Virus record (IMG/VR): IMGVR_UViG_2882238243_000002
Span: 64,001 to 128,000 of that record
Strand: one strand, 5' to 3'
DNA length: 64,000 bases
Origin: a virus
Lineage: Duplodnaviria > Caudoviricetes
The notes beneath the pieces are model-generated. The model was not told where the DNA came from. It was given only the letters and a program-made list of their open reading frames with translations, and did no database searches. A program made the position numbers and the translations under genes. Positions 2,084-20,316 of this stretch are shown piece by piece (position 1 is the first letter of the stretch; each line of letters starts with the position of its first letter).

Positions 2084-2845
2084 ATGATTGGCTTGAAAAC
2101 AGAAGTAAAAGAAATACCGTTCAACGGTAACACCTTATTAGGTGTAAAAGATGCAAGCGGGCAAGTGTGGCTGGCAGTAAAGAAAGTGTGTCTTGATATA
2201 GGTTTATCAGAAGGACAGGCACAAAGGCAAATAACAAATATTCAAGAGGAAGAGCCGTTAAAATCCAACTGTTGCAAATTTGCAATAGTTCAAACAGAAG
2301 GAAATAGAGAGATAAAGAGAAAGCAACTATTTCTAAATGAAAAGGTTGTGACTTTATGGCTTGCTAAAATTTCACTAACTCCGACTGTTAAGCGAAAAAG
2401 TCCGGAAGCATATAATAAACTTCTGAAATACCAACTAGAAGCCGCTGACATACTTCACAAAGCATTTTATGAGACAGAGGAACAGAAGACTACTTTAAAT
2501 TCTAAAATGGGATTAGAAGGGCATCTTGAAATTTTACAAGTACAGATTAACAACATGGAAAACATGTTAGAAACACAAACGGAAAAGCTTGATAGAGTAG
2601 TTGAAAATATGACACTCTCAACCAGACAGCAACAAAAATTATATAAGGCAGCAAAAGACCGAATTAATTATCTGTTGGGTGGCGCACATTCAAAGAACTA
2701 TAAAGCTAATGCCAAAAGCTACTTTATTAACCTTTGGAATAGCTTAAAATCTCGTTTTGAGTGTGGCAGATACAAGGATCTGAATCCTATTTACTATAAT
2801 GAAGCGTTTGACTTCATTTCTGAATGGGAATATACAGAAGCATAA
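2084..2845 (+). CDS. phage antirepressor-like protein, copy 1 (P22_AR_N-like N-terminus + ORF6C-like C-terminus)
   Basis: IPFNGNTLLGV..VWLAVKKVC..IGL, LWLAKI, KYQLEAADILHKAF, C-terminal F..YKDL..Y.EA.FI.EW. Confidence 0.8.
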   Translation: MIGLKTEVKEIPFNGNTLLGVKDASGQVWLAVKKVCLDIGLSEGQAQRQITNIQEEEPLKSNCCKFAIVQTEGNREIKRKQLFLNEKVVTLWLAKISLTPTVKRKSPEAYNKLLKYQLEAADILHKAFYETEEQKTTLNSKMGLEGHLEILQVQINNMENMLETQTEKLDRVVENMTLSTRQQQKLYKAAKDRINYLLGGAHSKNYKANAKSYFINLWNSLKSRFECGRYKDLNPIYYNEAFDFISEWEYTEA

Positions 2846-2853
2846 CACAATGA

Positions 2854-2966
2854 CATAATTCACGTTTTACATACAGCTTGTAGTGGTCAAACGTTACAAG
2901 CTGATTTGTTCCACTCTGTAGAGTGATGGAAATAGTCTTGTATTTTCCTATTCAAAGAAAGTAGTT
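2854..2966 (+). ncRNA. conserved structured element, copy A (hairpin with GTCAAA loop)
   Basis: 12-bp stem at 2874-2903; homologous to 13468-13584 with compensatory changes. Confidence 0.45.
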
Positions 2967-4674: not shown

Positions 4675-4710
4675 AAGGAAAATTTCATATAAGGATTGGA
4701 GGAAATTAAA

Positions 4711-5493: not shown

Positions 5494-6036
5494 CAGCTAT
5501 GAGAATAACAGGAATAATGATCAATGGAATAGAAGTAATTCCAGAACATGGACACTATTTGTTACAAAAGGATAATACGAAAATGAGATGCGATTTCGGA
5601 GAATTAAATGAGTGTATACCAGAATTTGAAGAATATTTAGAGGAAGCAAAACAAAAATTGCAAACAGCATAAATTAACAGGAGGAGGATTTATCATGAGA
5701 GAAATAGATTTAATTCGTAACTACTATGCTCTTTTAATTAGCATTTGTAAACGGAAAAGCGCAAAAGAATCTTTAATTGATATGAGGATATCGCCAGAAA
5801 CAAAATAATACATATTGCCGGCTATTCAGTGAAAAATAGTCGCTTACCGTCAAAAACAAACGGATGTACCGGAAGGGAATTATATTTCTTTCGCTAACCT
5901 CGTGTAATTGGAGGTAGAAAAATAATAAAAACGCGGCTGGTAATTTTCAAAGGTTATCAGCCGATTTTAGAGAACGGTGTACTTCTCAAAGTAACAGGAA
6001 AACGCATTTCAATATAAGATTGGAGGAAATAATAAT

Positions 6037-6225
6037 ATGTTGGTTTATATAGTAAATGAACGCACAAACGGAAAAAACGGTTCCTTATTTGGTGGAATAT
6101 TTAGCACTAAAGAAAAGGCTAAGCAAGTAGCAGATAGAGAAAATAGCAGAAAAAATAAACCTAATGATGTATGGTTTGATTATGTTGGAATTGAAGTTGA
6201 TGATGATTTTAGAGCCAAATATTAA
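6037..6225 (+). CDS. hypothetical protein
   Basis: GGAGG RBS; flanked by repeat sites at 5996 and 6228. Confidence 0.65.
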   Translation: MLVYIVNERTNGKNGSLFGGIFSTKEKAKQVADRENSRKNKPNDVWFDYVGIEVDDDFRAKY

Positions 6226-6269
6226 CTTGAAATTCACATTTCAAGACTAATTAGAAAGGAAAAGGATAG

Positions 6270-6824
6270 GTGAAATATATGAATTTTTATCTAATACAAC
6301 GTGGGAGTTTTAAAGAATTAAATAATGATTATGAAGGGCTTACAGGTAGAAATGGGCTTATTGATTTAGATTATATGGGTTCATCAGAGTTTGAGTGGGG
6401 AGCAATTCCTAAAGCATATCGTAGAATTATGGGAAATAGAGAAAATTATATTTTTTATTATTGCCATGATATAAAAGACTACAGAGGAAAAATCCTTGTA
6501 ATTTTTTGCAAGAAAGAAAATGCAGAAGCAATTGAAGAAGAATTAAAAAGATATATTAAAGAACATTACCATCTCAAAGAGTTTTGTACTCTTCATGCAC
6601 ATTTAGAAGGGTCGAAAAAGAATAGGATGAATGAATATCAAATTGGAAAAGATTTTTTTTGGTGTATTGATATAGGAGAAGATATATCTGATTGGATGGC
6701 GTGGTTTGGAATGGATAAATTGACAGTATTTAAAAATATGATTGATAAAGATTATAACGAATGGTGGATGAAGAAGGCAGAGTCAGAAAGAATAGATGAA
6801 TATAACAAAGCATTGAATTGGTAA
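6270..6824 (+). CDS. hypothetical phage protein
   Basis: 184 aa with DYMGSSEFEWGAIP motif; flanked by repeat sites. Confidence 0.75.
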   Translation: MKYMNFYLIQRGSFKELNNDYEGLTGRNGLIDLDYMGSSEFEWGAIPKAYRRIMGNRENYIFYYCHDIKDYRGKILVIFCKKENAEAIEEELKRYIKEHYHLKEFCTLHAHLEGSKKNRMNEYQIGKDFFWCIDIGEDISDWMAWFGMDKLTVFKNMIDKDYNEWWMKKAESERIDEYNKALNW

Positions 6825-6860
6825 CATATATAATGAAATGTACCTTTCTTATGGTATAGA

Positions 6861-7073
6861 TTGGAGAAAAACGATATGAAACGTATGGGATTCTATACTG
6901 GAAAAATATATGATGATTCTGTTAATCCAGCAGACATTAAAGAATGTTGTCAGTATATCAATTACAAAGAACCTATTCTTGATGATGAAGAGCTGATTAT
7001 CAGAAAACGCAAGTTGTTACATGAAAGATGTATTGAATGTAACAGTTGTGAAGAATCGAAAAAAGGTGAATGA
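6861..7073 (+). CDS. small Cys-rich protein (paralog of 4910..5095)
   Basis: MKRMGFYTGKIY..ECC..CIECNSC. Confidence 0.65.
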   Translation: MEKNDMKRMGFYTGKIYDDSVNPADIKECCQYINYKEPILDDEELIIRKRKLLHERCIECNSCEESKKGE

Positions 7074-7101
7074 TGTCTTTCAATAGAGGAGGAATAACGA
7101 G

Positions 7102-7233
7102 ATGAAGTGGAAATTATTTTGTACTATTACAATGGGAACTTATCATATAGAGGCAGATAGTTTATATTCAGCAAAAAAGCAATTAGCAGCACAACTTGGC
7201 GTACCTGTTAGTTGCATAGATGATTACAGATAA
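7102..7233 (+). CDS. small hypothetical protein (43 aa)
   Basis: GAGGAGG RBS; stop overlaps the repeat site at 7231. Confidence 0.55.
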   Translation: MKWKLFCTITMGTYHIEADSLYSAKKQLAAQLGVPVSCIDDYR

Positions 7234-7322
7234 AATGCACGTTTCTTATGGTAGGTATTGTAATTATAGAAAAAAGTTAAAACACATTGAAAATACTTGT
7301 TTGATATAGAGAGGAGAAAACT

Positions 7323-7550
7323 ATGAAAGTTAGGGAATATATAATAAGATTAAGAAATGATAATCCAGAGGCGTACATGGTTGCCTATAAATCTCAAGAA
7401 GGAGACGGAGACAGTGCACATTTAAGCATCATATCTTTCCTGACGAAGTATGGTGATAGAAATATGGGTGACGAATATCATGATGATTTTTGTCATGCCG
7501 ATGGAACAAGAAATCTTAATCAATTCATAAAGAGAATATATACGGTATAA
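7323..7550 (+). CDS. hypothetical protein
   Basis: ORF with AGGAG RBS. Confidence 0.65.
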   Translation: MKVREYIIRLRNDNPEAYMVAYKSQEGDGDSAHLSIISFLTKYGDRNMGDEYHDDFCHADGTRNLNQFIKRIYTV

Positions 7551-7569
7551 ACAGAATGCTGATTTTAAA

Positions 7570-7770
7570 TTGAAAGGTAAGAATATGAGAGAAGATTTCA
7601 AAGTGGTTGAAAAGAATGGAAAACAATATAGAAAAAATCTTAATACAACAGGAATGTGCGTTTATTATTCTGATTTGAGGTGTGTATGCTGTAATCCAGA
7701 TTGTAGCTATAACTGTAGTATTGATGATGAAATAGAAGAACAGTTAGAAAATGATTTTCTGAAAAGATGA
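7570..7770 (+). CDS. small Cys-rich hypothetical protein
   Basis: CVCCNPDCSYNC; stop overlaps a repeat site. Confidence 0.6.
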   Translation: MKGKNMREDFKVVEKNGKQYRKNLNTTGMCVYYSDLRCVCCNPDCSYNCSIDDEIEEQLENDFLKR

Positions 7771-7834
7771 AATCGGAATTTAGTCTGGATAAATATTATC
7801 AGTAGAACTAAATTAAACTTTAAAGAGGTGAAAA

Positions 7835-8050
7835 ATGGTAAATAATGAATACCCAAAAACAAGCAGGACAAAGTTAAGAGGAAAACCTCTTGATGATGAT
7901 TGCAAAAAAGCAAATACAACTACACATGAAATGGGTATGAAAGATAACAGGGTATTTTGCCGTGGATTATATGCGTGTGGTGGAATGTCGGAAGATATTG
8001 ATAAAAAATGCCTTTTATGTGGAGCGTATGTATTTAACGATTTAAGTTAG
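7835..8050 (+). CDS. hypothetical protein
   Basis: GAGGTG RBS; CxxC motif. Confidence 0.6.
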   Translation: MVNNEYPKTSRTKLRGKPLDDDCKKANTTTHEMGMKDNRVFCRGLYACGGMSEDIDKKCLLCGAYVFNDLS

Positions 8051-8058
8051 GAGAAAAT

Positions 8059-8199
8059 ATGGAAAATATTAAAATGATTGTAGAATCACTATTGGGAGTA
8101 GCGGAGGCTACTTATGAAGTATGCACAGATGAAATCGAAAAGGCAAGAATGGATGGATAAGTAAGAGCGTACAGAGAAGTTCTTTCTCACCTAAATTAG
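8059..8199 (+). pseudogene. small gene with an internal TAA
   Basis: AGGAG RBS; MENIK..RMDG*VRAYREVLSHLN*; internal stop at 8158; final stop overlaps the repeat site at 8191. Confidence 0.45.
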
Positions 8200-8219
8200 C
8201 CTTTCGAAAAGGAGAATAT

Positions 8220-8480
8220 ATGACAGATAATGATTTAAATGATTTGGCAATACAAACGATGAGTAGTTTAATTGAATATTACGGTAATTCAGACAGCAGA
8301 AGCATTGATTGTAAAAGGGCAAAAAATTTATTAATAAAAAACTCTTTGAAAATTTACAAGGGTAATTATACATGTCCCTCCTGCAGCACATTTAATTCTG
8401 TATGGGAAAGCAGAGAACATACAGTTAAAAACGATGTTGTGTATTGTTGGCATTGCGGACAAAAAGTTCAATTAAAATAA
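8220..8480 (+). CDS. zinc-ribbon protein
   Basis: CPSC...CWHCGQ. Confidence 0.7.
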   Translation: MTDNDLNDLAIQTMSSLIEYYGNSDSRSIDCKRAKNLLIKNSLKIYKGNYTCPSCSTFNSVWESREHTVKNDVVYCWHCGQKVQLK

Positions 8481-8595
8481 ATTAGTCTTTAATGAGGTGT
8501 TGAACATTGAAAACTTAATATTGATAGTTAGTGGTATTGTGGTACAATATAGGTATTGATGAGTAGTAAATTGGAACTTTGGAGGAGATAATGAA

Positions 8596-8724
8596 ATGAA
8601 AGTAATGATTAAAATGATTGCTGCCGTAATTATATTTCTAGTTTATTATATTGTGTTTTGTGCAATAGAAGGTATAGATATGGGTGACCCATGGAAAAAA
8701 TTAATGAAATGGGCAAAAAGTTAA
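8596..8724 (+). CDS. small membrane peptide (42 aa) with its own promoter and terminator
   Basis: TTGATA(8521)..TGnTACAAT(8543) promoter, GGAGG RBS, hydrophobic core. Confidence 0.55.
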   Translation: MKVMIKMIAAVIIFLVYYIVFCAIEGIDMGDPWKKLMKWAKS

Positions 8725-8763
8725 TTGGTATAGTCCTTGTAAATTTAATAGTCTTGAGATATC

Positions 8764-8800
8764 AACTACTAACTACAAATATTAAGTTAGTAGTTTTTTT
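8764..8800 (+). terminator. rho-independent terminator
   Basis: AACTACTAACT/AGTTAGTAGTT stem followed by a T-run. Confidence 0.65.
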
Positions 8801-8988
8801 ACGCGAAAAATAGCTAGTTAAACTAAGCATTAGTGGGTAAGAAAAGATGAAACATAGGTTTCAACCGGCACTGGGTTGTGTCGCTGACCATTAAAAACTA
8901 ATGGTAGATATTTCAAGATTATAGTATAATAACAATAACAGAATATAGTGGATAAAGACCTACATGGTAGGCAGAAAGAGGTATAGGA

Positions 8989-9201
8989 ATGGTAGGATTG
9001 ATAATTATAGGTGCAATAGCTTGGATAGCATGGCAAGTACTTAAAGACGTATCTACAACACCGTATGATCCGGGTTCGTATGGTGGTTCACATGAAGCGC
9101 AGACGAAATTCAGACAGGATATCTCAAAAGTCAGTTTTGGTGAGATGTCACAAAGGGAACTTGACAGAAATACCCGTAACGGAAAATATAGAGACAAATA
9201 A
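8989..9201 (+). CDS. single-TM small protein
   Basis: N-terminal hydrophobic helix; C-terminal MSQRELDRNTRNGKY. Confidence 0.65.
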   Translation: MVGLIIIGAIAWIAWQVLKDVSTTPYDPGSYGGSHEAQTKFRQDISKVSFGEMSQRELDRNTRNGKYRDK

Positions 9202-9214
9202 GGAGGAGTTTATT

Positions 9215-9490
9215 ATGGGAGTAGCAGAATTTTTTATAGGATTATTTTTGATTTTAGGAACTTATATTTTTATTAAAATGCCAAGATGGAAATCGGACAA
9301 TAGGGTATCACCGCCAGGATATACGACAGACTATCATAAAATGAACGTTGACAGAAATAATGGTATGAATCAGCGTGATATTGATAATAAAAATATTAAT
9401 GGTGGTTATGATGTGAAAGCAGATAAAAACGGTTGTCCGGACAGAAGTGAAAGCGGAACAAATTGGATGTATGGCGGAAAATCTGAATAA
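9215..9490 (+). CDS. single-TM small protein, distant paralog of 8989..9201
   Basis: AGGAGG RBS then ATG 9215; MNQRDIDNKNINGGY. Confidence 0.65.
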   Translation: MGVAEFFIGLFLILGTYIFIKMPRWKSDNRVSPPGYTTDYHKMNVDRNNGMNQRDIDNKNINGGYDVKADKNGCPDRSESGTNWMYGGKSE

Positions 9491-9593
9491 GGAATGAAAG
9501 TTGAATATGAATTATTATAAGAGAGCCACTGGATAGTAAAAATCTGGTGGCTTTTGTGATTGGAAAATAGTATAATATGGAGGTGTATTAATA

Positions 9594-9809
9594 GTGTTGA
9601 CATATAAAAAAGTAGAAAAGTTAGTTGAACAGAAAAACAAAGAGCATGACTATTCAGATATTCGTTATCCGCTTACGCTCAAAAGAGGAGTGCCAGATGC
9701 GAGATATTCAAATAGTTATAAATACACACTGTATAATGCTGCAAATAGGGGTGTAGACAGTGTTCATAAAACGTTACAAGACGTAGTGGATAGTTTGAAG
9801 GGAGAATAA
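9594..9809 (+). CDS. hypothetical protein
   Basis: GGAGGTG RBS. Confidence 0.6.
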   Translation: MLTYKKVEKLVEQKNKEHDYSDIRYPLTLKRGVPDARYSNSYKYTLYNAANRGVDSVHKTLQDVVDSLKGE

Positions 9810-9811
9810 TT

Positions 9812-10183
9812 ATGGCGAGAAAAATAAAAATTAAAGACTACTTAGGTGATGAGTATCAAGGTTCTTGGAACGGAAAAGAATATAGCTCAAAATTTTCAGA
9901 CGGAAAGGATCTTGTACGAATTTATATCGATGACGAAGAGGTTCATGTTGAGCGTAAAGAATTAGATAAAATTTACGCTGGCGATGAAAGACTTCATCTG
10001 AAAATGCAAGCAAATTTATTAGATGAAATAATGAAGCAAGATGATGAGTTTCTCAAAAAAGTATTGAGCAAAGTTATAGGCTGTGGTAGGCTAGTTAATA
10101 GAAAAGAGCGGAACGAAATTATTACAATATTGGACAATAGCACTACATTTAAAGCCATAGAAGAAAAGGATTACAGATATTAG
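9812..10183 (+). CDS. hypothetical protein
   Basis: ORF with RBS. Confidence 0.7.
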   Translation: MARKIKIKDYLGDEYQGSWNGKEYSSKFSDGKDLVRIYIDDEEVHVERKELDKIYAGDERLHLKMQANLLDEIMKQDDEFLKKVLSKVIGCGRLVNRKERNEIITILDNSTTFKAIEEKDYRY

Positions 10184-10223
10184 ACGAAGGTAAACAATAA
10201 TAAGGGACGAGGAAAACAGAAAA

Positions 10224-10706
10224 ATGGAATTGAATCATTTTACAGTAAACACTAAAAATAATAGAGTTAGTAAATCGGAGGAGGTGCTAAAAGCCACTCG
10301 GAAAAATTTGAGACAGACAATAATAGATGCACAAGGTGATTGTGGGGTTGATGTGCTTGATAATACCAACTTTAAATTAACTGTTGAAGAAAACTGTTAT
10401 ATGGGAACTCTGAGTGTCTATGAAAAAGATATATTACTCCCTATTTTAGTAACTGGTGGAGCATCTACTGAATATAGTCGAAAATATATTTGGGGTGAAA
10501 TGTTAAAAGTAAACAATGTTTTGCAAACACAAAGGTTAAATACAATACTTGATGCAAATAGCATTATTTTCCCCACCTCACCTTTAATTATGGATATTGT
10601 TATTGAGATGGTTGCAATAAAACATATTGACATAATGGAATGGACTGGTGATTTTTCAAAGTGTATAGGACATATACTGTTAGGAAGTTCAGTTGATTTC
10701 AAATAA
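10224..10706 (+). CDS. hypothetical protein
   Basis: 160-aa ORF; stop overlaps a repeat site. Confidence 0.7.
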   Translation: MELNHFTVNTKNNRVSKSEEVLKATRKNLRQTIIDAQGDCGVDVLDNTNFKLTVEENCYMGTLSVYEKDILLPILVTGGASTEYSRKYIWGEMLKVNNVLQTQRLNTILDANSIIFPTSPLIMDIVIEMVAIKHIDIMEWTGDFSKCIGHILLGSSVDFK

Positions 10707-10979
10707 AAGGATTATTTCATGATGTGATAGGAGGATGTTGATATGTGTATGCCAGAATTAAAGGAAATAAAGTAGTATCAATAAATGGATTTAAAGTTGA
10801 ATTAGATATGGTAACTTTATTCTATGGAAGCGCAGTAAGTGGGTATAAACAAAAAAGCTATATGTTATATGACGTGGAAGTATTTGAAAGATGAAATGAT
10901 TGTTTGATTGGAGCATGTGGCTCGTAAAAATAAAGGACAAACTATAAGGAAATATAAAATGTCAGTTGGAGGCTAGAAT

Positions 10980-11294
10980 ATGATTATAAAAATGAGTATT
11001 GAGAAGTATGAAGAATCTTTTGAAGAACTTAGGAATAAAATAAAATCGTTTAATACGGACAACTATATGTTTGATTTACAATTATCAGATAAGAAGATTT
11101 TTGGCAATGTATCTTCTTGTTTTGAATTAATTATAAAAACACCCGTGGTGAAAGAAGTGGAAAGAATTGAATTAGAGTTTATGTATGAAGATGTAGATAG
11201 TTATATTTATAGATTTGAACCGATAGTGAAGAATGGTCTTATTGACGAAGCTTTATTAGGACTTATGAGTTATATAGTAGAATACACTAAATAA
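10980..11294 (+). CDS. hypothetical protein
   Basis: GGAGG RBS. Confidence 0.65.
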   Translation: MIIKMSIEKYEESFEELRNKIKSFNTDNYMFDLQLSDKKIFGNVSSCFELIIKTPVVKEVERIELEFMYEDVDSYIYRFEPIVKNGLIDEALLGLMSYIVEYTK

Positions 11295-11321
11295 TAGTTT
11301 GATCAAGAAAGGAACAAAAAT

Positions 11322-11504
11322 ATGGTAACAACAGTTTGCTATAAAAATGAGAAAGTTTGGGAAACGAGAGAGTTAGCAGAACAGTATTTTTTAGAGTGTA
11401 TGATGAAATGTGACGCGGGAAGTGAAAGAGATAGATATGTTAATATTTATTGTAAATTAAAGAGTGGAAGAGATTACTGCACTGACAATATAGATGAAAT
11501 TTGA
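11322..11504 (+). CDS. hypothetical protein
   Basis: GSERDRYVNIY motif; RBS. Confidence 0.65.
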   Translation: MVTTVCYKNEKVWETRELAEQYFLECMMKCDAGSERDRYVNIYCKLKSGRDYCTDNIDEI

Positions 11505-11686
11505 GATTTATAGGATGTAATTATATGAATGCAACATATTATAACAATGAACAACTTTTAAAATCTGTTGTTCAGCTAGAAAAAGATTGGAAAAGATTGT
11601 ACCCGAATGGAGATATTGACAACCCATTATATGAAGGATTACAATATGAAAGGTACTTATGTAATAAGCGAGGACTTAACTATTGA
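11501..11686 (+). CDS. hypothetical protein
   Basis: ORF; likely ATG start at about 11525. Confidence 0.55.
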   Translation: MRFIGCNYMNATYYNNEQLLKSVVQLEKDWKRLYPNGDIDNPLYEGLQYERYLCNKRGLNY

Positions 11687-11720
11687 TTAGTGAAATCTAA
11701 GATTCAAGGAGGATTTTAAA

Positions 11721-11909
11721 ATGAGTGGTATTAAATTTAAATCTGTGCCTAAACACGCAAATATTATACATGAGACCCCAATTATAGAAATTGATGGTGT
11801 TGAATTACATGGGTGCGTGACAAATAAAGACGACGATGAAATTTTAAAAGTTAAGGTTTCAAAATGGAGCGATATGGTACATATTGCTAACGCTCACACC
11901 GATGCATGA
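11721..11909 (+). CDS. hypothetical protein
   Basis: AGGAGG RBS; flanked by repeat sites at 11691 and 11913. Confidence 0.65.
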   Translation: MSGIKFKSVPKHANIIHETPIIEIDGVELHGCVTNKDDDEILKVKVSKWSDMVHIANAHTDA

Positions 11910-11941
11910 CCGTGAAATCATCGTTTCAAAGGACTGAGAAA

Positions 11942-12193
11942 TCAGTCCTTTTTTGTACGGTGAAATGTTGGATCGTCAGTACGTCCGACTAAATAATCTA
12001 TAGACGTTTGAAAATAATCAGCTAATTTTATTACCATGTCTAAACTTGGCTTTTTCTGTTCATTTTCAAAATTACTGATTGTTGCTCTCGTAGCCCCTAA
12101 ATCATTAGCTAATTGCTCCATCGTTAATCCTTTAGATGTACGAAGTTCTTTTAATCTAGTGGAAAATGATGGAAGAAAAAAGAAAAAAAACAT
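11942..12193 (-). CDS. XRE-family (CI/ImmR-like) repressor
   Basis: RLKELRTSKGLTMEQLA..ISNFE..PSLDMVIKLADYF..SIDYLVGRTD; ATG at 12193 after GAGGTG. Confidence 0.9.
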   Translation of the reverse strand: MFFFFFLPSFSTRLKELRTSKGLTMEQLANDLGATRATISNFENEQKKPSLDMVIKLADYFQTSIDYLVGRTDDPTFHRTKKD

Positions 12194-12204
12194 TTTATCA
12201 CCTC

Positions 12205-12250
12205 TTGACAAAAGTATTCAAATAGAATACAATGTATTCAGATGGAATAC
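12205..12250 (+). promoter_or_regulatory. divergent switch promoter with tandem GTATTC-N5-GAATAC operators
   Basis: TTGACA(12205)-17-TACAAT(12228); perfect palindromes at 12214-12230 and 12234-12250. Confidence 0.8.
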
Positions 12251-12283
12251 AAACGAGATATAAAAACTGGAAAGGAGAGCAAA

Positions 12284-12472
12284 ATGAGCCAGTTAAAGAA
12301 ACTTCGTTTGCAACATCATTGGACTCAACAATATGTAGCAGATGTTATTGGTATTACAAAGGCAGCTTATTCTAATATAGAAAATGGAAATAGAAATCCA
12401 TCATTAAAAATTGCTTTACATCTGCAAAATATATTTGGTCTACAAATAGAAAAAATATTGGAAAAAGAATAG
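12284..12472 (+). CDS. Cro-like XRE regulator
   Basis: LKKLR..WTQQYVADVIGITKAAYSNIENGNRNPS; ATG 12284 after AAGGAG. Confidence 0.88.
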   Translation: MSQLKKLRLQHHWTQQYVADVIGITKAAYSNIENGNRNPSLKIALHLQNIFGLQIEKILEKE

Positions 12473-12570
12473 CGGTTTCACTCCGACCAAAGAACGAAAA
12501 CCGCTACACCGTAACTTGGATTTAATCCCTAAGTCGATTACATTCTATCGTACTTTCAGGACTAATTCAA
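12461..12570 (-). ncRNA. candidate antisense sRNA unit A
   Basis: minus-strand TTGAAT-17-TAGAAT promoter; hairpin at 12470-12506 followed by a U-rich tail. Confidence 0.5.
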
Positions 12571-12708
12571 GTCAAATTTTCCAAAACAGAGCACATTGAC
12601 AATTAAATCCATCCACAAACGGAGAATAACAAAGTGAAACCGTAAGCGTAATACCGTAAATTCGCTGTGAAGTGTGTGACGGATGATAAAAGAAAGGATG
12701 ATATTATT

Positions 12709-13458
12709 ATGAAGAAAAATTATGAAGTAAAAGAAGTTCCGTTTAAAGGAGACTCATTATTAGGAGTAAAAGATGAAACAGGACAAGTTTGGTTAGGAGT
12801 TAGAAAGTGTTGTCTTGATATTGGATTAACAGAGCATCAAGCTGATAGGCAAAGAGATAATATTAAGAACGATTTAGCATTATCCAAAGGGTACTCAAAT
12901 TTGGATATCCCTACAAATGGAGGAATTCAAAAGGTGTTATGTATTAGCGAAAAGTTTGTCACATTATGGCTTGCTAAAATTTCACTAACTCCTACTATGC
13001 AGAAGAAGAATCCGAAGGCAGTACAAAAACTACTTGAATACCAGCTAGAAGCTGCTGATGTTCTTCATAAAGCATTTTATGAGACAGAAGAACAGAAGTC
13101 TGCGTTTAACGCTAGAATTGGTTTAGAGGGACATATTGAGGTTATGCAAGTACAGATTAATAACATGGAAAGTATGTTAGAAACACAGACCGAAAAACTT
13201 GATAGAGTTGTAGAAAATATGACACTTTCTACCAGGCAACAGCAGAAACTTTATAAAGCAGCTAAAGACAGGATCAATCATCTTTTGGGTGGCGCTCATA
13301 GCAGAGAGTATAAAGCTAATGCAAAAAGTTATTTTATTAACCTTTGGAACGGTTTGAAATCTCGCTTTGAGTGTGGCAGCTCATATAAGGATCTAAATCC
13401 CGTTTATTATAATGAAGCCTTCGACTTTATTTCTGAATGGGAATATGTAGAGGGATAA
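12709..13458 (+). CDS. phage antirepressor-like protein, copy 2
   Basis: C-terminal two-thirds nearly identical to 2084..2845. Confidence 0.82.
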   Translation: MKKNYEVKEVPFKGDSLLGVKDETGQVWLGVRKCCLDIGLTEHQADRQRDNIKNDLALSKGYSNLDIPTNGGIQKVLCISEKFVTLWLAKISLTPTMQKKNPKAVQKLLEYQLEAADVLHKAFYETEEQKSAFNARIGLEGHIEVMQVQINNMESMLETQTEKLDRVVENMTLSTRQQQKLYKAAKDRINHLLGGAHSREYKANAKSYFINLWNGLKSRFECGSSYKDLNPVYYNEAFDFISEWEYVEG

Positions 13459-13467
13459 TACATATAA

Positions 13468-13584
13468 CATAATTCACGTTTTACATATGCGGTCGGTAGC
13501 TGTCAAAGGCTGTCGGCTGATTTCTGACATGCTGTATATGCGATGTCGATGGTCTTATACTTTCCCATTGTAAAGAAAGTAGTT
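13468..13584 (+). ncRNA. conserved structured element, copy B (leader of the recombinase gene)
   Basis: 12-bp GU-rich stem at 13490-13519 with GTCAAA loop; shares the AAAGAAAGTAGTT end with copy A. Confidence 0.45.
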
Positions 13585-13617
13585 ACTAGAAATGATTTCT
13601 GGAAAGGAAGTGAAACT

Positions 13618-14613
13618 ATGTGCTACAAAGAAGAAGTACAAAGAAAAAATGCTGAGAAGTTACAACGAAAATTTGATGAAGAGAATGTACCAGAATTTAT
13701 TCAGGACTTTTTCCCACGCATAGCAAGTAGAGCTGCAAGGATTAATTATTGGTCAACTATTAAAAATATGCTTAAATGGTTAATGGAAAATAATTTCATA
13801 AAAAGAGATAAGCTAAGTGATATAGTATCTGATGATATTAAAAACATCAGACCTGCAAAGATGATTTCCTACTTTGAGTATTTAAAATATGATAAAAAGA
13901 TATCACTCAACACACTAAGCACTCAAAAAAATCAGCTTGGAAGTTTTTGGGAGTACTTAAAGGAAGAACACTATCTTGACGATAATATTGTCCATATGGT
14001 CAAATCAGAAGAATTTAAGCCAGCAAAAACAAACAGAAGAAAGATGGAAAAAATGCCATTACATGAAGATGTTGAAGAGATGATTGAAAAAATACTCAGA
14101 AAGCCAGATGAATTTATAAGGATAAGAAATATTATGGTGTTTAGAGTGTTGAGAGGAACTGGACTAAGAGAGTCTGAATTAGCTGGATTAGATATTGATA
14201 ATTTATTTTTAGAAGAAGAACATCCCTATATTCTTGTAATCAGTAAAGGAACCTATGATTACTCAGATAATGGAAAAGATATAGTATATCTCACTAAAGA
14301 TGCAACAGCGGCTTTAAATGAGTGGTTAGAATATCGAATGGAACTAGATGATATTGTAGATAGTAAAGCCATTTTTCTCAACAAAAATGGAAAGCGTATG
14401 AATGAGGAAAATATTCAAAACATGTTTAAAACCTATTCTAGTGGAAAATTAACGCCACACATGATGAGACATGAATATACCACTATATTACAAAGAGAAA
14501 CGAATGATCCAACGTTCGTACAGGAGCAAGGAAGGTGGAAGTCTGATAAGGTTATGAGGTCTGTATATGATAGTGGGGCAAGTAGGTCTTTGGGTAAACT
14601 GGCAAATATGTAA
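13618..14613 (+). CDS. tyrosine recombinase/integrase (XerC-like)
   Basis: TGLRESEL (R), SKG (K), PHMMRH (HxxR), GRW (W), VY (Y); ATG 13618 after AAAGGAAG. Confidence 0.9.
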   Translation: MCYKEEVQRKNAEKLQRKFDEENVPEFIQDFFPRIASRAARINYWSTIKNMLKWLMENNFIKRDKLSDIVSDDIKNIRPAKMISYFEYLKYDKKISLNTLSTQKNQLGSFWEYLKEEHYLDDNIVHMVKSEEFKPAKTNRRKMEKMPLHEDVEEMIEKILRKPDEFIRIRNIMVFRVLRGTGLRESELAGLDIDNLFLEEEHPYILVISKGTYDYSDNGKDIVYLTKDATAALNEWLEYRMELDDIVDSKAIFLNKNGKRMNEENIQNMFKTYSSGKLTPHMMRHEYTTILQRETNDPTFVQEQGRWKSDKVMRSVYDSGASRSLGKLANM

Positions 14614-14881
14614 ACATAAGAATTGTGTGTTTCATAGAGAATGGATTTGTGATAAAATTGAAAGAGAATTAAAAAGAATGCAAGGACGGAGCCGGTTTAC
14701 CATGAAGAAAATTTTAGACTACACAATTAATAAAGATGATATGGCAAAGATGGACGATAGAGAAGTGGCAGAATTGTTAATGTACACCGATAGAGATAGA
14801 AAAGAATTAGAAGTTGCCGAGAAAATATATTGGTGGTGTGTTGAAGAAATTAATCGAAGAGAAGATGAGGTGGTTTCATGA
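14567..14881 (+). CDS. hypothetical protein
   Basis: ORF; true start probably downstream (about 14702). Confidence 0.5.
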   Translation: MIVGQVGLWVNWQICKHKNCVFHREWICDKIERELKRMQGRSRFTMKKILDYTINKDDMAKMDDREVAELLMYTDRDRKELEVAEKIYWWCVEEINRREDEVVS

Positions 14882-15075
14882 AATGCACATTAGAAGAGGA
14901 TGTTAATACTTGTCAATTCTTCAAAAGAGAGGTTCACACATGAAATGAAGGTAAATGTTCTTTTCAGGAAGAAGACGAAACAAACGTAAACGGAGAATAT
15001 ACAAGAGATAAGCGTTGGTATGAGCAATATTACAAGAAGAAAGATTGATTTCAAGTGAAGAGGAGGATTTAACAT

Positions 15076-15297
15076 ATGGAAACTATTTTGTATGGGGAGC
15101 ATAGCGTGTGGAAATTTTTAAAAAAAGATAGATATACCAAAGAAGGAATAAAGAAAACAGAACAGATTTATGATTTTCTTCAAAAGATGAAAGAAGATGT
15201 GGGTGTTGACAGAATGAGAGAATTGTTTGATATGTGGAATGAATATAGTGATGAGACATTTTGGATTTTATCAAACATTACTCATGATAATGAATAG
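15076..15297 (+). CDS. hypothetical protein
   Basis: AGGAGG RBS; flanked by repeat sites. Confidence 0.65.
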   Translation: METILYGEHSVWKFLKKDRYTKEGIKKTEQIYDFLQKMKEDVGVDRMRELFDMWNEYSDETFWILSNITHDNE

Positions 15298-15328
15298 CAG
15301 TTAAAAGCCAGATTAATAGGAGGAAATG

Positions 15329-15855
15329 ATGGAAAAATTTATGAACGAACCAATCCCATATGAGCGGACTAATAAAGACATTATTCAGGAATATGAAAAG
15401 TGCCAAGATAAAAAGAAAGTGGCTGTCATATGGGGAATTAGTGTAAAAGAAGTTGATGAGATATTAAAACAAGAGAAGACTTGAGGTGATGTTATATGAA
15501 AGTAAAGAGAAATAATCCGGAGTGGTGTTGTCAACAGATTGAGGATAAAATACAAGATTATAAAATAAGTATAACTGAAACAGAAAACGAAGATGTAAGA
15601 AGGCAATTAGAAATTATTGTTGAGGACTTAGAAGAAATATTATATGGATGAAATGCTGTTTTCAAATTAAAAATTATTCAGGAGGATAATATGAATATGG
15701 ATAGTAAGATTAATAATTTATTATATTTAGAAACAATCATAACAAACCTGATACACCGTGAAATTGAAGAATTATTAAGAGGAAAAGAATCGGATAGTCA
15801 AAAACTTAAAGAAAGTATTATATACCAAATAGATGACAGACTGAATACACGATAA
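15329..15855 (+). CDS. three small hypothetical genes (15329-15484, 15496-15651, 15691-15855)
   Basis: each has a strong RBS; two stops overlap repeat sites. Confidence 0.55.
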
Positions 15856-16029
15856 AATCAACTTTAAAAAGAAATTCATGTAAAAAGAAGTTAGAAGATA
15901 TGGAATATGAGGTGAGCTTTTCTCCAGATAATTATGAATTAGTGATACGAAAATTTGATATGATAGACAAGCATTGAATAAAATCTTTGTTTGTGGTTGG
16001 AGAATAATAAACGTAAAGAGGTAAGGTAG

Positions 16030-16281
16030 ATGAAATTAAATTTTAGCTTGAAGAATAAGGAAGCAAGTTTAGAAGCAGATGTTGAAGGGGTTATTGAAAA
16101 AGGTTTCGAGCATAGGGCTAAAAATCCTAATAGAAAAACTCGACATCAGATCAAACAAGAAGAAAAACGGTTGAATGAAGAATTAAAACAGAAAAAGTTA
16201 ATTCAGGGTATGCTGCTGATGATGGGACTCATTGTTTTTGCTCTAATTATCTGCGCAATCGGATCTGCGTTGAATTGGTAG
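16030..16281 (+). CDS. C-terminally anchored membrane protein
   Basis: hydrophobic C-terminus. Confidence 0.65.
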   Translation: MKLNFSLKNKEASLEADVEGVIEKGFEHRAKNPNRKTRHQIKQEEKRLNEELKQKKLIQGMLLMMGLIVFALIICAIGSALNW

Positions 16282-16342
16282 AAAAGATGTGAGAATTAGT
16301 GGTAAGATACAATGAAAGGATAGTTTCGTGGGAGGTGATGTT

Positions 16343-16698
16343 GTGGGATTTGATATGTACCTGATTAAGGTGGACAAAAATAAGATAAGAAATTTAGAAG
16401 AACCTTTGTGGCAAGAAATTCAAGATGCAACGATTGATGAAGTAGATAACTATTATCCTGTTTTACATGATTTTTATTAGGATCATGATGATTTACAATG
16501 GATATATGAAGAATATAATCTCTTATCGGAAATCAGTTTGACTGAAATAATTGAGTGGTTAAAAGAGAAAATAAAAACAAAAAAAACTTTGGTTTAGATA
16601 GTAGCGAAGAAAGAATGACTAAAATGGTTTATGAAAATATAAAAGATTGGATTCCTCTAAAAGAAAATGAGATTGTTTATTTTGAGGAAGATAGCTAA
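16343..16698 (+). pseudogene. disrupted hypothetical gene
   Basis: GGAGGTG RBS; begins MGFDMYL; in-frame TAG at 16478 and a frameshift near the A-run at about 16580. Confidence 0.55.
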
Positions 16699-16737
16699 TA
16701 AAAGAGAAATCTCTTTTGGAAAGGAGAATAAGTAATT

Positions 16738-16950
16738 ATGGACAATAAAAAATGCATTGAGATTTTAGAAACTTTAAAATGCGACTTAGATGACAATTGG
16801 GACAAATCAGACCCTGAAATAATTCAAATTATAAATAGATATTTTTCCGCTATTGATCATGCGATTATCAGTTTATCAAGTAAGAATATGGTAGGAGAAC
16901 TGATTATTGAAGACAAAAAATATATTATTTGTGGACAAGAATTGAGTTGA
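16738..16950 (+). CDS. hypothetical protein
   Basis: AAGGAG RBS. Confidence 0.65.
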   Translation: MDNKKCIEILETLKCDLDDNWDKSDPEIIQIINRYFSAIDHAIISLSSKNMVGELIIEDKKYIICGQELS

Positions 16951-16975
16951 TGATTTACTAGATAGGAGGGCTTGT

Positions 16976-17551
16976 ATGAGCGTGGAAATGCAAATTGCTT
17001 TATTGGGTATCATAGGCACCCTTGTAGGTACAGTATTAGGTTGGTTTTTAAATAATCTGTCACAGCGAGGAAAACTTAATATATATGTTTCATCTTGGAA
17101 AGATAAATTCGAGTACAATCATATTGGAACAATGGTTCCTAGTTCAAGCATCGAACAGACTGAAAGTTATTCATACAGATTAGCACTCGATTTATATAAC
17201 GATAGTGGTGAAACAAAGATAATGAGAAATGTTGAAATTGTATTTGCTAAAAACAAAGAGGTATTGTATTGCAGTGTTCCCAAAGATGAAGCAACTGGGC
17301 GAACAAGCCATCCGATGGCATATTATGATGATGTATTACCTATAAACATCCCACCAAAGACTGTTTTACATATAGAACTCTTCAAAGGGGTTTGGAAAAG
17401 TAATACCTCACTTGATTTTATTTGGAAAACTACTTCGGTATTTTTGAGATATGTAAACGAGAATAATAAAAAAGTAAGTGTTATGATTAATAAAGTAAAC
17501 TACAAGGATTATTTTATTCATCATAAGACAGATGAGCAAGATAATGAATAA
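16976..17551 (+). CDS. N-terminally anchored membrane protein
   Basis: IALLGIIGTLVGTVLGWFL; AGGAGG RBS. Confidence 0.75.
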   Translation: MSVEMQIALLGIIGTLVGTVLGWFLNNLSQRGKLNIYVSSWKDKFEYNHIGTMVPSSSIEQTESYSYRLALDLYNDSGETKIMRNVEIVFAKNKEVLYCSVPKDEATGRTSHPMAYYDDVLPINIPPKTVLHIELFKGVWKSNTSLDFIWKTTSVFLRYVNENNKKVSVMINKVNYKDYFIHHKTDEQDNE

Positions 17552-17581
17552 AAGTTCAGTTTCAATACGGGAGGGATAAAT

Positions 17582-17806
17582 ATGGATTGGAATAAAGTAA
17601 ATCTAAGAAGTAAAGATAAAAATTTACCACAAGCGGACATACCTGTAATATGGGCAACTAATGAAGAAACTCATGATGAAAAGATATTCCATAAATTTAT
17701 TGGATGGCTAAGTAAGGATTGTAAATATGTGGAGTCTGGATGGAAAAGATATAGAGTAACTAGTAAATTCTGGTGGCAGGAATTGCCAGATGATCCGGAA
17801 ATTTAA
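17582..17806 (+). CDS. hypothetical protein (DUF551-like pattern)
   Basis: W..V..LP at the N-terminus and WQELPDDP at the C-terminus. Confidence 0.6.
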   Translation: MDWNKVNLRSKDKNLPQADIPVIWATNEETHDEKIFHKFIGWLSKDCKYVESGWKRYRVTSKFWWQELPDDPEI

Positions 17807-17848
17807 TATATAATGAATGTGAAATTTCGTAGCATTGGGAGAAAGTAG

Positions 17849-18604
17849 GTGATATTTATAATTTATGTAACCGGAGATACTCATGGAGATTGGATGAGCC
17901 GTTTAAATTCTAATTCATTTCCAGAGCAAAAGGAGATGACCAAGGATGATTATGTGATTATCTGTGGTGATTTTGGTATATGGGACAACTCCAACAGAGA
18001 AAAATATAATCTAAATTGGCTCGAAGATAAACCTTTTACAACACTGTTTGTGTCTGGAAATCATGAAAACTATGATATTCTTGACTCATTGTCAATTTCA
18101 GAATGGCACGGTGGCAACGTCAATTACATAAGACCATCAGTAATGCACTTGATGCGTGGACAGGTTTTTAATATTGAAGGTAAGAATTTCTTTACATTTG
18201 GTGGCGCAAGTAGCCATGATATTTCAGATGGAATTTTGGAGAAAGACGATCTCAAAATAAAAAAATGGAGAAAAGATTATTCTAAAATGTTTCGTATTAA
18301 CCATGTCTCATGGTGGGAAAGAGAATTACCTTCCAACGAAGAAATGAATGAAGGAATTGCAAAACTTGCTGTTGTTAAAAATAAAGTTGATTATATTATC
18401 ACTCATAGTCCATATACATGGCTATTAAAGCAGGTGGATGGTGGTAGTGGACTGTATAAACCGGATATACTGACCGATTACTTGCAAGACATCAAGCAAA
18501 CTGTTGATTATAAGCATTGGATGTTTGGGCACATGCACACCAATCAAACGTTTTATTGGGAAAGAGCAAGTTGCTTATATGAACAGATTATTAGAATAGA
18601 ATAA
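17849..18604 (+). CDS. calcineurin-like metallophosphoesterase
   Basis: GDTHG, CGDFG, GNHE, THS and FGHMH motifs; likely ATA start at 17858. Confidence 0.9.
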   Translation: MIFIIYVTGDTHGDWMSRLNSNSFPEQKEMTKDDYVIICGDFGIWDNSNREKYNLNWLEDKPFTTLFVSGNHENYDILDSLSISEWHGGNVNYIRPSVMHLMRGQVFNIEGKNFFTFGGASSHDISDGILEKDDLKIKKWRKDYSKMFRINHVSWWERELPSNEEMNEGIAKLAVVKNKVDYIITHSPYTWLLKQVDGGSGLYKPDILTDYLQDIKQTVDYKHWMFGHMHTNQTFYWERASCLYEQIIRIE

Positions 18605-18658
18605 TGAAATGTCCAAACGTGAATTATAGTATTAATAAAAAAAAGAAATAAATTCCTA

Positions 18659-18687
18659 TTGAAAAAGAACAACTGTTCGATTATAAT
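18659..18687 (+). promoter_or_regulatory. SOS-regulated promoter (LexA box between -35 and -10)
   Basis: TTGAAA-17-TATAAT enclosing GAAC-AACT-GTTC (18667-18678). Confidence 0.85.
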
Positions 18688-18718
18688 AACCTTATCCAAT
18701 AATTTAGGAGGTGTCATT

Positions 18719-19984
18719 TTGGATAGGGTTATTTTTCATATAGATGTAAATTCCGCGTTTTTATCATGGGAAGCAGCATATCGCATTCATCATCTGGGAG
18801 GTAGATTGGATTTGCGTACAATTCCATCTGCTATCGGTGGAGATGTAAGTATGCGCCATGGTATTATTCTTGCTAAGAGCATACCAGCAAAGCCGTATGG
18901 AATTCAGACTGGAATGACGATAATGGAGGCAAAACAAAAATGCCCTAATTTATATTTGGCTCCTCCGAATTACTCTTTGTATCAGAAATGCTCGAAGGCA
19001 TTTTTGACTATTTTACGTGAATATACACAAGATGTTGAGGTATACAGTATTGATGAAGCATTTCTCGATATGACAACTACAATGCACCTATATGGAGATC
19101 CTATAGATGTAGCTAATCAAATTAAGAATCGAATACGAGACGAATTAGGATTTACTGTGAATATTGGAATTTCATCTAATAAACTTCTGGCAAAGATGGC
19201 AGGTGATTTCAAGAAGCCAGATTTAGTTCATACACTTTTCCCGGAAGAAATTGAGAAGAAAATGTGGGTATTGCCAGTATCAGAACTATTTTTCTGTGGT
19301 CGAGCTACCACAAAGAAATTATTGAACTTTGGTATTAATACAATAGGAGATTTAGCGCATACTGATATAGAGTTCTTAAAAAGAAATTTAAAAAAGCAAG
19401 GTGAAATAATGTGGAACTTTGCGAATGGACTTGATTTTTCTGCTGTAATATCAGAAACGCCAAAACAAAAGGGGTATGGAAATTCTACCACCACTCAGTT
19501 TGATGTAAAAGATGCTGAGACAGCTCAAAAGGTGTTATTAGCATTGTGTGAAACTGTAGCTGCTAGATTGCGAAAAGATGATTTCCAAGCACAAGTAATA
19601 TCTGTTGGCGTTAAGAGTTCCGATTTAAGTTATGCAAGTCATCAGATGATTATGAAAAGTCCAACGAATATTACAAATGAATTATATTATTATTCTTGCA
19701 AGCTATTTCTTGAATTATGGGATAAACAAACTCCTATACGACATCTTGCGGTTCACACCAGTTCTTTAACATCTGAGTTTGGTTCCCGACAGCTTAACTT
19801 ATTCGACGTAACTGATTATATAAGGTTAGAAACGTTAGATAAGACAGTAGATATTATCAGAACAAGATATGGTAATGATGCGGTTAAACGAGCAGTATTT
19901 ATTCAAACGCCAATTGACCATATGGAGGGTGGAGTGTCTAGAGAAAAGCGTACAGTAGATTATTCAAAGATTAACGTTGTCTGA
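18719..19984 (+). CDS. dinB: Y-family DNA polymerase (DinB/UmuC-like)
   Basis: HIDVNSAF, SIDEAFLD and NKLLAKMA motifs; TTG 18719 after AGGAGG. Confidence 0.92.
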   Translation: MDRVIFHIDVNSAFLSWEAAYRIHHLGGRLDLRTIPSAIGGDVSMRHGIILAKSIPAKPYGIQTGMTIMEAKQKCPNLYLAPPNYSLYQKCSKAFLTILREYTQDVEVYSIDEAFLDMTTTMHLYGDPIDVANQIKNRIRDELGFTVNIGISSNKLLAKMAGDFKKPDLVHTLFPEEIEKKMWVLPVSELFFCGRATTKKLLNFGINTIGDLAHTDIEFLKRNLKKQGEIMWNFANGLDFSAVISETPKQKGYGNSTTTQFDVKDAETAQKVLLALCETVAARLRKDDFQAQVISVGVKSSDLSYASHQMIMKSPTNITNELYYYSCKLFLELWDKQTPIRHLAVHTSSLTSEFGSRQLNLFDVTDYIRLETLDKTVDIIRTRYGNDAVKRAVFIQTPIDHMEGGVSREKRTVDYSKINVV

Positions 19985-19995
19985 TTCAAAGGAAG

Positions 19996-20316
19996 GTGAT
20001 TTTTGTGGGAATGGGCATCGGAATAAATGATACAATTACCGATGAAGGTGTGATAAAGGGGCATCAAGAAGAAGTGGCTTGTGATGCGTGGTTTACAGCT
20101 AGCGGCAGAATAATTATTCGCCTTATAAAACAAAAGAAAAAAGACGAAAGTATAGTTGAAATAGATAATATTCGTGTACTTTCATCATCTAAAAAGAACT
20201 TTTGTGGTATTCAAACGATAGAATTTATATGCGAAGCAGTTGTTGAAGGTTTTATGAAAAGATTTAAGCTGTTCTTTTACACAGAAGAACAAATATGGAG
20301 GATGATAATGTTGTAA
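19996..20316 (+). CDS. hypothetical protein in the mutagenesis cassette
   Basis: lies between dinB and the SRAP gene. Confidence 0.65.
   Translation: MIFVGMGIGINDTITDEGVIKGHQEEVACDAWFTASGRIIIRLIKQKKKDESIVEIDNIRVLSSSKKNFCGIQTIEFICEAVVEGFMKRFKLFFYTEEQIWRMIML

Follow-up and report, generated by a model that had tools for sequence, protein, structure and literature searches.

A putative Xer/Cre-like tyrosine recombinase inside a large SPbeta-like prophage, probably distinct from the reader of the palindrome array that surrounds it

The DNA considered in this work, hereafter the window, is a 64,000-nucleotide (nt) stretch of the caudoviricete record IMGVR_UViG_2882238243_000002 (positions 64,001 to 128,000), which spans C8:283855-347854 of a 4.26-Mb genome; plain coordinates are window positions. 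The analysis indicated that its gene at 13618..14613, on the plus strand, is best read as encoding a "simple" tyrosine recombinase of the Xer/Cre-like kind, with a core-binding and a catalytic domain, and that the protein looks like a catalytically complete, active enzyme and not like an MrpR-like relic. This recombinase did not integrate the ~143-kb SPbeta-like prophage in which it lies. It is, in addition, probably not the protein that reads the 16-bp palindrome TGAAA-N6-TTTCA repeated along this prophage, an array which is probably a separate feature of a regulatory nature.

The catalytic residues proposed in the earlier note (TGLR, SKG, HMMRH, GRW and VY) were indeed all present within the longest open reading frame (ORF) of the locus, 13543-14613 (+), of 356 amino acids (aa). 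This ORF matched Pfam PF00589 (Phage_integrase) with 81 bits, against a cut-off of 27.1, over its residues 179-342, which places it in the superfamily, and its PHROGs match was phrog_1 "integrase". Numbered on the 331-aa protein retained below (add 25 for numbering from 13543), the catalytic set consists of R184, E187, K210, H281, R284, W307 and Y317. Among 29 homologs sharing 50-100% identity, six of these residues were invariant and position 307 was W or H, the two residues allowed there. An HMMER alignment superimposed R184, E187, K210, H281 and R284 on R213, E216, K239, H309 and R312 of Helicobacter pylori XerH, as numbered in Table 3 of PMC10516654. The retained tyrosine had been taken as favouring an active enzyme. 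By itself it proves little, because MrpR also keeps Tyr and Lys, and it is the conservation of the full set of seven in the homologs that argues for activity.

Affinities of sequence and fold were in line with this reading. Six solved structures in the PDB were matched by sequence, the best being XerH (3.1e-08), XerA and XerD, and MrpR was absent from those six. The comparison by structure model which the earlier note had suggested grouped the protein with true recombinases: an AlphaFold2 (AF2) model built on the homolog alignment reached a mean predicted local distance difference test (pLDDT) score of 89.5, and Foldseek found 77 PDB matches at E 0.001 or better, with the two-domain fold, core-binding plus catalytic, recovered. 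XerA, Tn1549 Int, XerH, the lambda Int core and Cre led these matches, which also included IntI, and SroF of Phi3T came only at rank 39. Seven NCBIfam families were matched at E 1e-5 or better, and none of the equivalog cut-offs was reached for XerC (93.5 bits against 335), XerS (93.1 against 267), XerA (93.2 against 220) or XerD (69.4 against 330); the protein is thus equally, and weakly, like XerC, XerS and XerA (~93 bits).

The extent of the gene was deduced from its homologs. The two segments concerned are:

13618..14613, plus strand: tyrosine recombinase gene, likely true coding sequence, 331 aa (PF00589, phrog_1 integrase, homolog lengths and starts)
13543..13617, plus strand: in-frame upstream extension of the longest ORF, mostly duplicated intergenic DNA (similarity to the flank of the first antirepressor gene ends at ~13595)

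The true start is most likely the ATG at 13618 and not position 13543, because homologs are mostly 326-340 aa long (among 120 listed of 1388 database homologs at E 1e-10 or better) and mostly begin there with MCYK. Indeed, MCYK or a close variant stood at the equivalent start in 24 of 29 aligned homologs, while the other five had N-terminal extensions unrelated to that of the 356-aa ORF, so that the extension encoded by 13543-13617 was shared by none of the 29. A ribosome-binding-site-like sequence, GGAAAGGAAG, lies just before this ATG. Moreover, 13459-13595 shares ~80% identity with the 3' flank of a paralogous antirepressor gene located 10.6 kb upstream and is therefore intergenic; 13543..13617 is probably not translated.

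Within a lineage of temperate phages of ~100-160 kb and ~30% G+C, the recombinase gene is conserved as an accessory gene. A close relative was not found in the phage GenBank collection, where the best match shared 27.5% identity. A set of 301 genomes from the same family, this one included, contained one homolog above ~33% identity, in G187 at 42%, the others being chromosomal XerS-like proteins ~30% identical, and a scan of genome contigs yielded six homolog loci (39-49% identity). Orthologs lie internally on viral contigs of 83-162 kb.

The position of the gene in the prophage decides against a role as its integrase. The window sits in an island of low G+C (32%, against 40% for the whole genome). 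A 30-bp direct repeat occurs at C8:220259-220288 (attL), where it forms the 3' end of a tRNA-Thr(CGT) gene (C8:220212-220288), and at C8:363705-363734 (attR). Just inside the right repeat, and adjoining a host GGDEF gene, lies a 417-aa Phage_integrase ORF (C8:362375-363628). The repeat pair and the ORF at this boundary therefore delimit a prophage of ~143 kb, of which the boundary gene is the likely integrase. The recombinase gene (C8:297472-298467) is ~77 kb from attL and ~65 kb from attR, and a different integrase adjoins attR, which bears out the earlier description of a gene amid small phage genes and away from the host-phage boundary. Ten PF00589 matches were counted in the genome, three of them inside the prophage; the third prophage gene of this domain (C8:264722-265675, 317 aa) also follows an antirepressor gene.

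Besides the recombinase, the earlier note had pointed to repeated sites around the gene. By aligning its two positions and printing the intergenic gaps, the motif could be reconstructed as the 16-bp palindrome TGAAA-N6-TTTCA; k-mer counting did not bring it out, and a direct search in which the 20-mer at 14618 was allowed up to three mismatches returned only the self-match. The repeat is real. Copies with at most one mismatch numbered 35 in the window, against 11.15 +/- 3.33 expected, and no shuffle out of 100 gave as many. Perfect copies in the prophage numbered 16 with a 6-bp spacer, against 0-3 with spacers of 3, 4, 5, 7, 8 or 9 bp, and the other 4.1 Mb of host DNA held 25, i.e., 0.61 per 100 kb, a background level. 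Perfect palindromes in the window start at 4426, 6228, 8848, 11913, 15649, 21030, 27942, 39291, 40868, 49768 and 63834, and those nearest to the recombinase gene are:

11913..11928, no strand: nearest upstream perfect palindrome, TGAAATCATCGTTTCA
15649..15664, no strand: nearest downstream perfect palindrome, TGAAATGCTGTTTTCA

The array is, in addition, placed in a particular manner. A copy with at most one mismatch started between -3 and +14 nt from the stop codon at 16 of 95 plus-strand gene ends, against 11 of 760 control offsets; the gaps that hold the sites are short, and many copies begin with the three bases of the stop codon, TGA or TAA. In five phages including this one, perfect sites fell at gene 3' ends in 7/16, 10/26, 13/25, 17/23 and 11/26 cases, and the motif is conserved across many phage genomes of 120-216 kb. 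Two records, G308 and G333, carry a variant, AAGAAA-N6-TTTCTT, with AGAAA arms at the 6-bp spacing 11 and 8 times and about once at other spacings. This variant is not tied to the recombinase, since G333 has an ortholog and G308 none.

The two sites said to bracket the recombinase gene fared differently. The downstream one is:

14619..14634, no strand: weak palindrome copy after the recombinase stop codon, AGAATTGTGTGTTTCA, two mismatches, starting 5 nt past the stop

Sites with at most two mismatches number 172 in the 64 kb, and those with exactly two occurred at 12 of 95 plus-strand gene ends against 28 of 760 control offsets, a ~3.4-fold excess, in line with 14619-14634 being probably a weak true member of the array. 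The position and the array-like placement claimed for it thus stand. Its special relation to this gene does not: a site at least as good is present at 28 of the 95 plus-strand gene ends, and 14619-14634 therefore says nothing particular about the recombinase. As for the "degenerate" site proposed upstream, 13468-13483 reads CATAATTCACGTTTTA, with mismatches at 4 of the 10 arm positions, and 459 of 760 control windows do as well, so that as a palindrome copy it does not rise above chance. It falls within a repeated block:

13467..13487, plus strand: 21-nt block ACATAATTCACGTTTTACATA, with an identical copy at 2853-2873

This block is identical after both antirepressor paralogs, in surroundings ~80% identical, and it is tied to the antirepressor 3' flank and not to the recombinase, because the copy at 2853 precedes no recombinase gene. 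Its spacer TTCACG, in the core AATTCACGTTT, reappears at several motif-like sites, as well as in three related phages; better-matching copies in the window are those at 6228 (with TTCACA), 46623-46638 (minus strand) and 18613-18628 (minus strand).

Bracketing was likewise not conserved among relatives. From 26 viral homolog loci (39-73% identity) and five full-length homologs on bacterial contigs, 30 were analysed (L039, 842 bases, being excluded). A copy with at most one mismatch lay within 100 nt after the stop codon in one of the 30 (L096) and within 200 nt upstream in one (L038), and downstream copies with at most two mismatches, found at 9 loci, compare with about 7 estimated by chance from their density of 2.47 per kb.

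Co-occurrence of the gene and the motif was evaluated in 34 large IMG/VR records (labelled by G-numbers) sharing the RecJ-like gene or the recombinase, each scanned whole with the family profile and the exact palindrome; the counts ignore kinship between records, and several ortholog-negative records are only 70-90% complete. Perfect copies per record were 2, 3, 2, 26, 18, 0, 7, 9, 4, 8, 4, 7, 3, 3 and 8 in the 15 records with an ortholog (E 1e-100 or better); 10, 15, 13, 3, 6, 3, 23, 12, 26 and 3 in the 10 without a profile match at E 1e-10 or better; and 23, 25, 23, 25, 23, 23, 24, 21 and 17 in nine phages of ~200 kb whose sole match was a distant tyrosine recombinase (E ~1e-23). A reversed-pattern control gave 0-3 copies per record. 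The two thus dissociate both ways. The motif is abundant where no ortholog exists, as in G324 (100% complete, with terminal repeats, 26 copies), G321 (100% complete, 12), G320 (23), G304 (15) and G306 (13), and sister-clade orthologs occur where the array is missing, as in G319 (100% complete, 0 copies), G313 (2) and G316 (2). The orthologs of G316, G317, G319 and G333 are only 39-44% identical to the recombinase, and its closest clade (63-67% identity; G325, G329, G330 and G331) has 9, 8, 4 and 7 perfect copies. Other Phage_integrase-domain proteins were present in all five records checked with PF00589, and the link is therefore refuted for this clade of recombinases, not for the superfamily.

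These data bear on the proposal of the earlier note that the recombinase is the best candidate cognate protein of the repeat, binding and perhaps cleaving the dispersed sites, which we now regard as improbable. Several observations would suit it: the 5-bp arms, 6-bp spacer and weak outer extension of the motif (CnnA...TnnG, see below) fit two Xer-type protomers; the half-site resembles the inner arms of difH and difSL (PMC5357621); the best solved-structure relatives are XerH, XerA and XerD; the closest clade has 4-9 perfect copies, above the 0-3 of the control; and a weak copy follows the stop codon. They are outweighed by the two-way dissociation, by the failure of bracketing on either side in the related loci, and by two properties of the sites themselves. 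The 6-bp spacer varies from site to site, which would prevent two different sites from exchanging strands. In comparisons of related phages, moreover, mosaic breakpoints fell at motif sites in 36 of 504 cases and at motif-less gene ends in 163 of 2269, so that they are not enriched at the motif, and the reading of the sites as cassette boundaries was rejected on this ground.

Other readers of the array were considered. Pooling 89 distinct perfect sites disclosed weak extra symmetric information, CnnA-TGAAA-Y...R-TTTCA-TnnG, with flank and spacer positions complementary no more than base composition predicts. A hairpin was rejected for want of base-pair covariation in flanks or spacer, and the motif is therefore a sequence palindrome read as duplex DNA by a symmetric binder and not a selected hairpin. 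Its geometry suits a dimeric helix-turn-helix (HTH) protein, and also two protomers of an Xer-type enzyme. A tblastn phyletic profile of 231 prophage ORFs against eight whole phage records revealed no protein tracking the motif. The only pattern that fitted was that of the HTH gene at 12242-12472, and it was rejected because the matches reflect similarity common to HTH proteins and lie at positions unrelated to that of the gene (28-40% identity, E 9e-07 to 0.007). CcpA (on cre) and Cra, host regulators whose half-sites read TGAAA/TTTCA, were set aside in view of the specificity for the 6-bp spacer (one perfect copy at spacer 4) and of the background level in host DNA.

The array is most simply seen, by analogy, as a set of dispersed operators or roadblocks, as with mycobacteriophage stoperators or the SPBRE of SPbeta. 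According to PMC9283540, stoperators are spread in many copies over the genome, are bound by the immunity repressor to stop transcription, and are asymmetric and read by a monomeric repressor. Both are thus dispersed short sites in a temperate phage, whereas the present motif is palindromic. An extremely improbable alternative would make TGAAA-N6-TTTCA and AAGAAA-N6-TTTCTT Xer-type core sites at the 3' ends of genes in large Lachnospiraceae-type phages, on which tyrosine recombinases of several clades, that of 13618..14613 included, would act. Each site having its own 6-bp overlap, exchange would then be restricted to one and the same boundary of two genomes that infect a cell together. If true, gene modules would be swapped site-specifically, and phages would have their own equivalent of integron cassettes or pdif modules.

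The likeness to such systems is partial. As in integrons, co-oriented small genes are each followed by a palindromic site at the 3' end, and a tyrosine recombinase is present; unlike in integrons, its gene lies inside the array and in the same orientation, and the IntI models TIGR02249 and PRK15417 do not match it at E 1e-5 or better. The palindromes measure 16 bp, lack structural covariation and show no enrichment of breakpoints, whereas attC sites are folded hairpins of greater length. The pdif modules of Acinetobacter plasmids are described in PMC5790767 as small gene modules bordered by short Xer-type sites used by the host XerC/D. Short sites bordering small genes at many places on one replicon are common to both; here, by contrast, the host genome has the motif at background level only, and no module exchange was detected at the sites.

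The genes around the recombinase point to an early operon and bring in a second possible role. The features concerned are:

11942..12211, minus strand: cI-like XRE-family HTH gene, divergent from the operon (Pfam HTH_3 3.1e-16, Phage_CI_repr 2.7e-06)
12242..12472, plus strand: Cro-like XRE-family HTH gene, first of the operon (Pfam HTH_3 1.4e-14)
12667..13458, plus strand: antirepressor-like gene, directly upstream of the recombinase gene (Pfam P22_AR_N and ORF6C, PHROGs anti-repressor)
2084..2873, plus strand: first antirepressor paralog and its copy of the 21-nt block, with no recombinase gene after it

A near-consensus sigma-70-like promoter, TTGACA-17-TACAAT, lies at 12205-12233 and is followed by the cro-like HTH gene, the antirepressor gene and, third, the recombinase gene; no terminator-like site was found in 11800-15200. 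From this order we infer that the recombinase belongs to an early lytic operon, and since the operon diverges from the cI-like gene, the protein would probably be made early after induction or infection.

Such a position, beside a cI/cro-like switch and an antirepressor, also recalls the integrase-fold regulators of lysogeny. MrpR is described in PMC10516654 as keeping only three of seven catalytic residues, showing no recombination and binding SPBRE, and SroF is reported to bind a 26-bp asymmetric box as a monomer (bioRxiv 10.1101/2025.11.27.690993). A role of the MrpR (YopR)/SroF kind, with or without residual catalysis, is unlikely here, in spite of several points in its favour. Like those proteins, the recombinase is an integrase-fold protein inside a large SPbeta-like prophage near lysogeny genes. 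The window holds an SPbeta-like replication block (DnaB-like helicase, primase, RecJ-like exonuclease and PolIII-alpha-like polymerase), and Foldseek matched SroF (9rd5) at E 1e-6. In viral relatives, the recombinase gene ends its operon and is followed by a terminator and then by a convergent Cro/CI-type HTH gene, the order of yopR, stem-loop and yopS in SPbeta. In the window, by contrast, the gene is co-oriented with the cro-like operon. Neither YopR/MrpR (BLASTP E 1.6) nor YopP (E 0.30) of SPbeta showed significant similarity to it; SroF stands behind about 30 true recombinases by fold; all seven catalytic residues are conserved, whereas MrpR lost four (PMC10516654); no repeated 26-bp asymmetric box of the SroF type was found here; and the palindrome does not travel with the protein in the 34 records.

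The duplication around the antirepressor genes could suggest a further role, as the integrase or mobility enzyme of a nested module or as a second attachment specificity, a reading we consider decidedly unlikely. The gene at 12667-13458 is paralogous to that at 2084-2845 (repeat families D1, D2 and D4, 72-84% identity), so that the two copies, 10.6 kb from each other, each comprise an antirepressor gene and the ~140 nt beyond it, with a perfect 21-mer in direct orientation. A second Rha/KilAC antirepressor and tyrosine recombinase pair exists at C8:264722-266540 (L005:6722-8540, minus strand), and in G301 (76% complete), which encodes a RecJ-like protein 99% identical to that of the window, the early region is unrelated and the ortholog is missing. 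However, the 21-mer lacks a clear two-arm inverted structure and was not found, at 18 or more of its 21 positions, in 4.0 Mb of related loci that carry orthologs; many 150-kb phages have the gene at an internal, syntenic position; and direct repeats flanking and bounding it were not found. The 317-aa recombinase of the second pair is itself present in G333 and G319, at 81-82% identity. Despite its RecJ-like protein, the provirus record L102 (G301) gave only two short DNA matches to window 1-20000, a pattern indicating sharp mosaicism between replication and early regions.

A tyrosine-type DNA invertase that would flip part of the phage genome, for instance a promoter or a host-range switch, has a very small probability in our view. 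Simple tyrosine recombinases of similar size do include invertases, and an inverted pair of 24 nt, 88% complementary, encloses 229 nt at 8512-8788 in a promoter-bearing gap. The right arm of this pair, however, belongs to a terminator-like hairpin before a run of T; the invertase models PRK09870 and PRK09871 miss the recombinase at E 1e-5, yet match two of five other recombinases scanned; and conserved inverted repeats near the gene were not found. The gap itself (8481-8829, 349 nt; arms at 8512-8535 and 8765-8788) bears a promoter-like TTGATA...TACAAT and a small hydrophobic ORF.

The role we favour, with an even chance in our estimate, is one like that of Cre or of the Xer proteins, with the phage's own DNA as substrate. 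The recombinase would carry out site-specific exchange on the phage genome, and candidate tasks are circularisation or the resolution of multimers, as by P1 Cre, or a programmed rearrangement of some other kind. Cre of P1 cyclises the phage genome and resolves dimers. Like Cre, the protein is a phage-encoded simple tyrosine recombinase located off the prophage boundary, and Cre structures are among its fold matches; unlike Cre, it shares only 14-16% identity with it in the fold alignment, and a lox-like 13-8-13 site was not found. With the Xer systems (XerH/difH, XerS/difSL and XerA) it has in common the domain layout, the catalytic residues and the best sequence matches. It differs from them in being phage-borne, in scoring far below the equivalog cut-offs (220-335 bits) and in having no dif-like site beside its gene.

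Several observations weigh against this Cre- or Xer-like assignment. The spacing from Trp/His to Tyr is 10 residues in this family, one longer than in the Xer proteins, with 9 given for Cre, XerH and lambda Int in Table 3 of PMC10516654, and the last 30 residues of the AF2 model have pLDDT values of 60-68, which makes the active-site geometry tentative. No core-like arrangement of 11-bp inverted arms with a 5-9-bp spacer was found within 10000-18000, and a search of this interval for a dif-like site (two inverted arms of ~11 bp around a 6-11-bp centre) gave hairpins and low-complexity pairs only. Nor was a convincing core site found around the gene in relatives: in the flanks of 18 related loci, the hairpin that follows it has arms which vary yet stay complementary, the behaviour of a terminator, and this terminator with its convergent HTH gene, as after yopR, hints instead at an MrpR-like role. 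In its 5-bp inverted arms, 6-bp spacer and ATGAAA half-site, the array motif is similar to the inner arms of difH (AGTTATGAAAA) and difSL (PMC5357621), which serve the nearest relatives to have been characterised, and this makes an Xer-type reader of the motif geometrically possible.

Other features were noted in the window, which also encodes an anti-restriction protein and methyltransferases. A diversity-generating retroelement occupies 25437-27969, with a target gene (25437-26225), an Avd-like gene (26277-26672) and a reverse transcriptase gene (26902-27969). Its two 82-nt repeats, at 26101 and at 26701, share 83% identity, and as each mismatch, by eye, is an A in the copy at 26701, this copy is the template repeat. 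An IS3-type insertion sequence with two transposase ORFs lies at 31021-32231; the 16-mer seed sites that bracket it recur inverted, with identical 20-nt flanks, ~87 kb away in the same prophage (C8:~227.3-228.7 kb). An RNA-repair-like set (RNA ligase, nucleotidyltransferase and polynucleotide kinase) is found at 43266-46135, and a 398-aa transposase-like ORF (phrog_506) stands among early genes at 51293-52489.

From a more general point of view, these results suggest, as judged from sequence, that internal integrase-fold genes borne by large SPbeta-like prophages of bacteria other than Bacillus may still encode full enzymes, in contrast with MrpR and SroF, which lost catalysis. This raises the question of what use an extra recombinase has in a 143-kb phage that already owns an integrase. 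The array appears to us a more interesting object than the gene, and separating the two avoids a wrong assignment. If the array is indeed devoted to stoperator-like silencing, it would constitute a second, independent case of that strategy.

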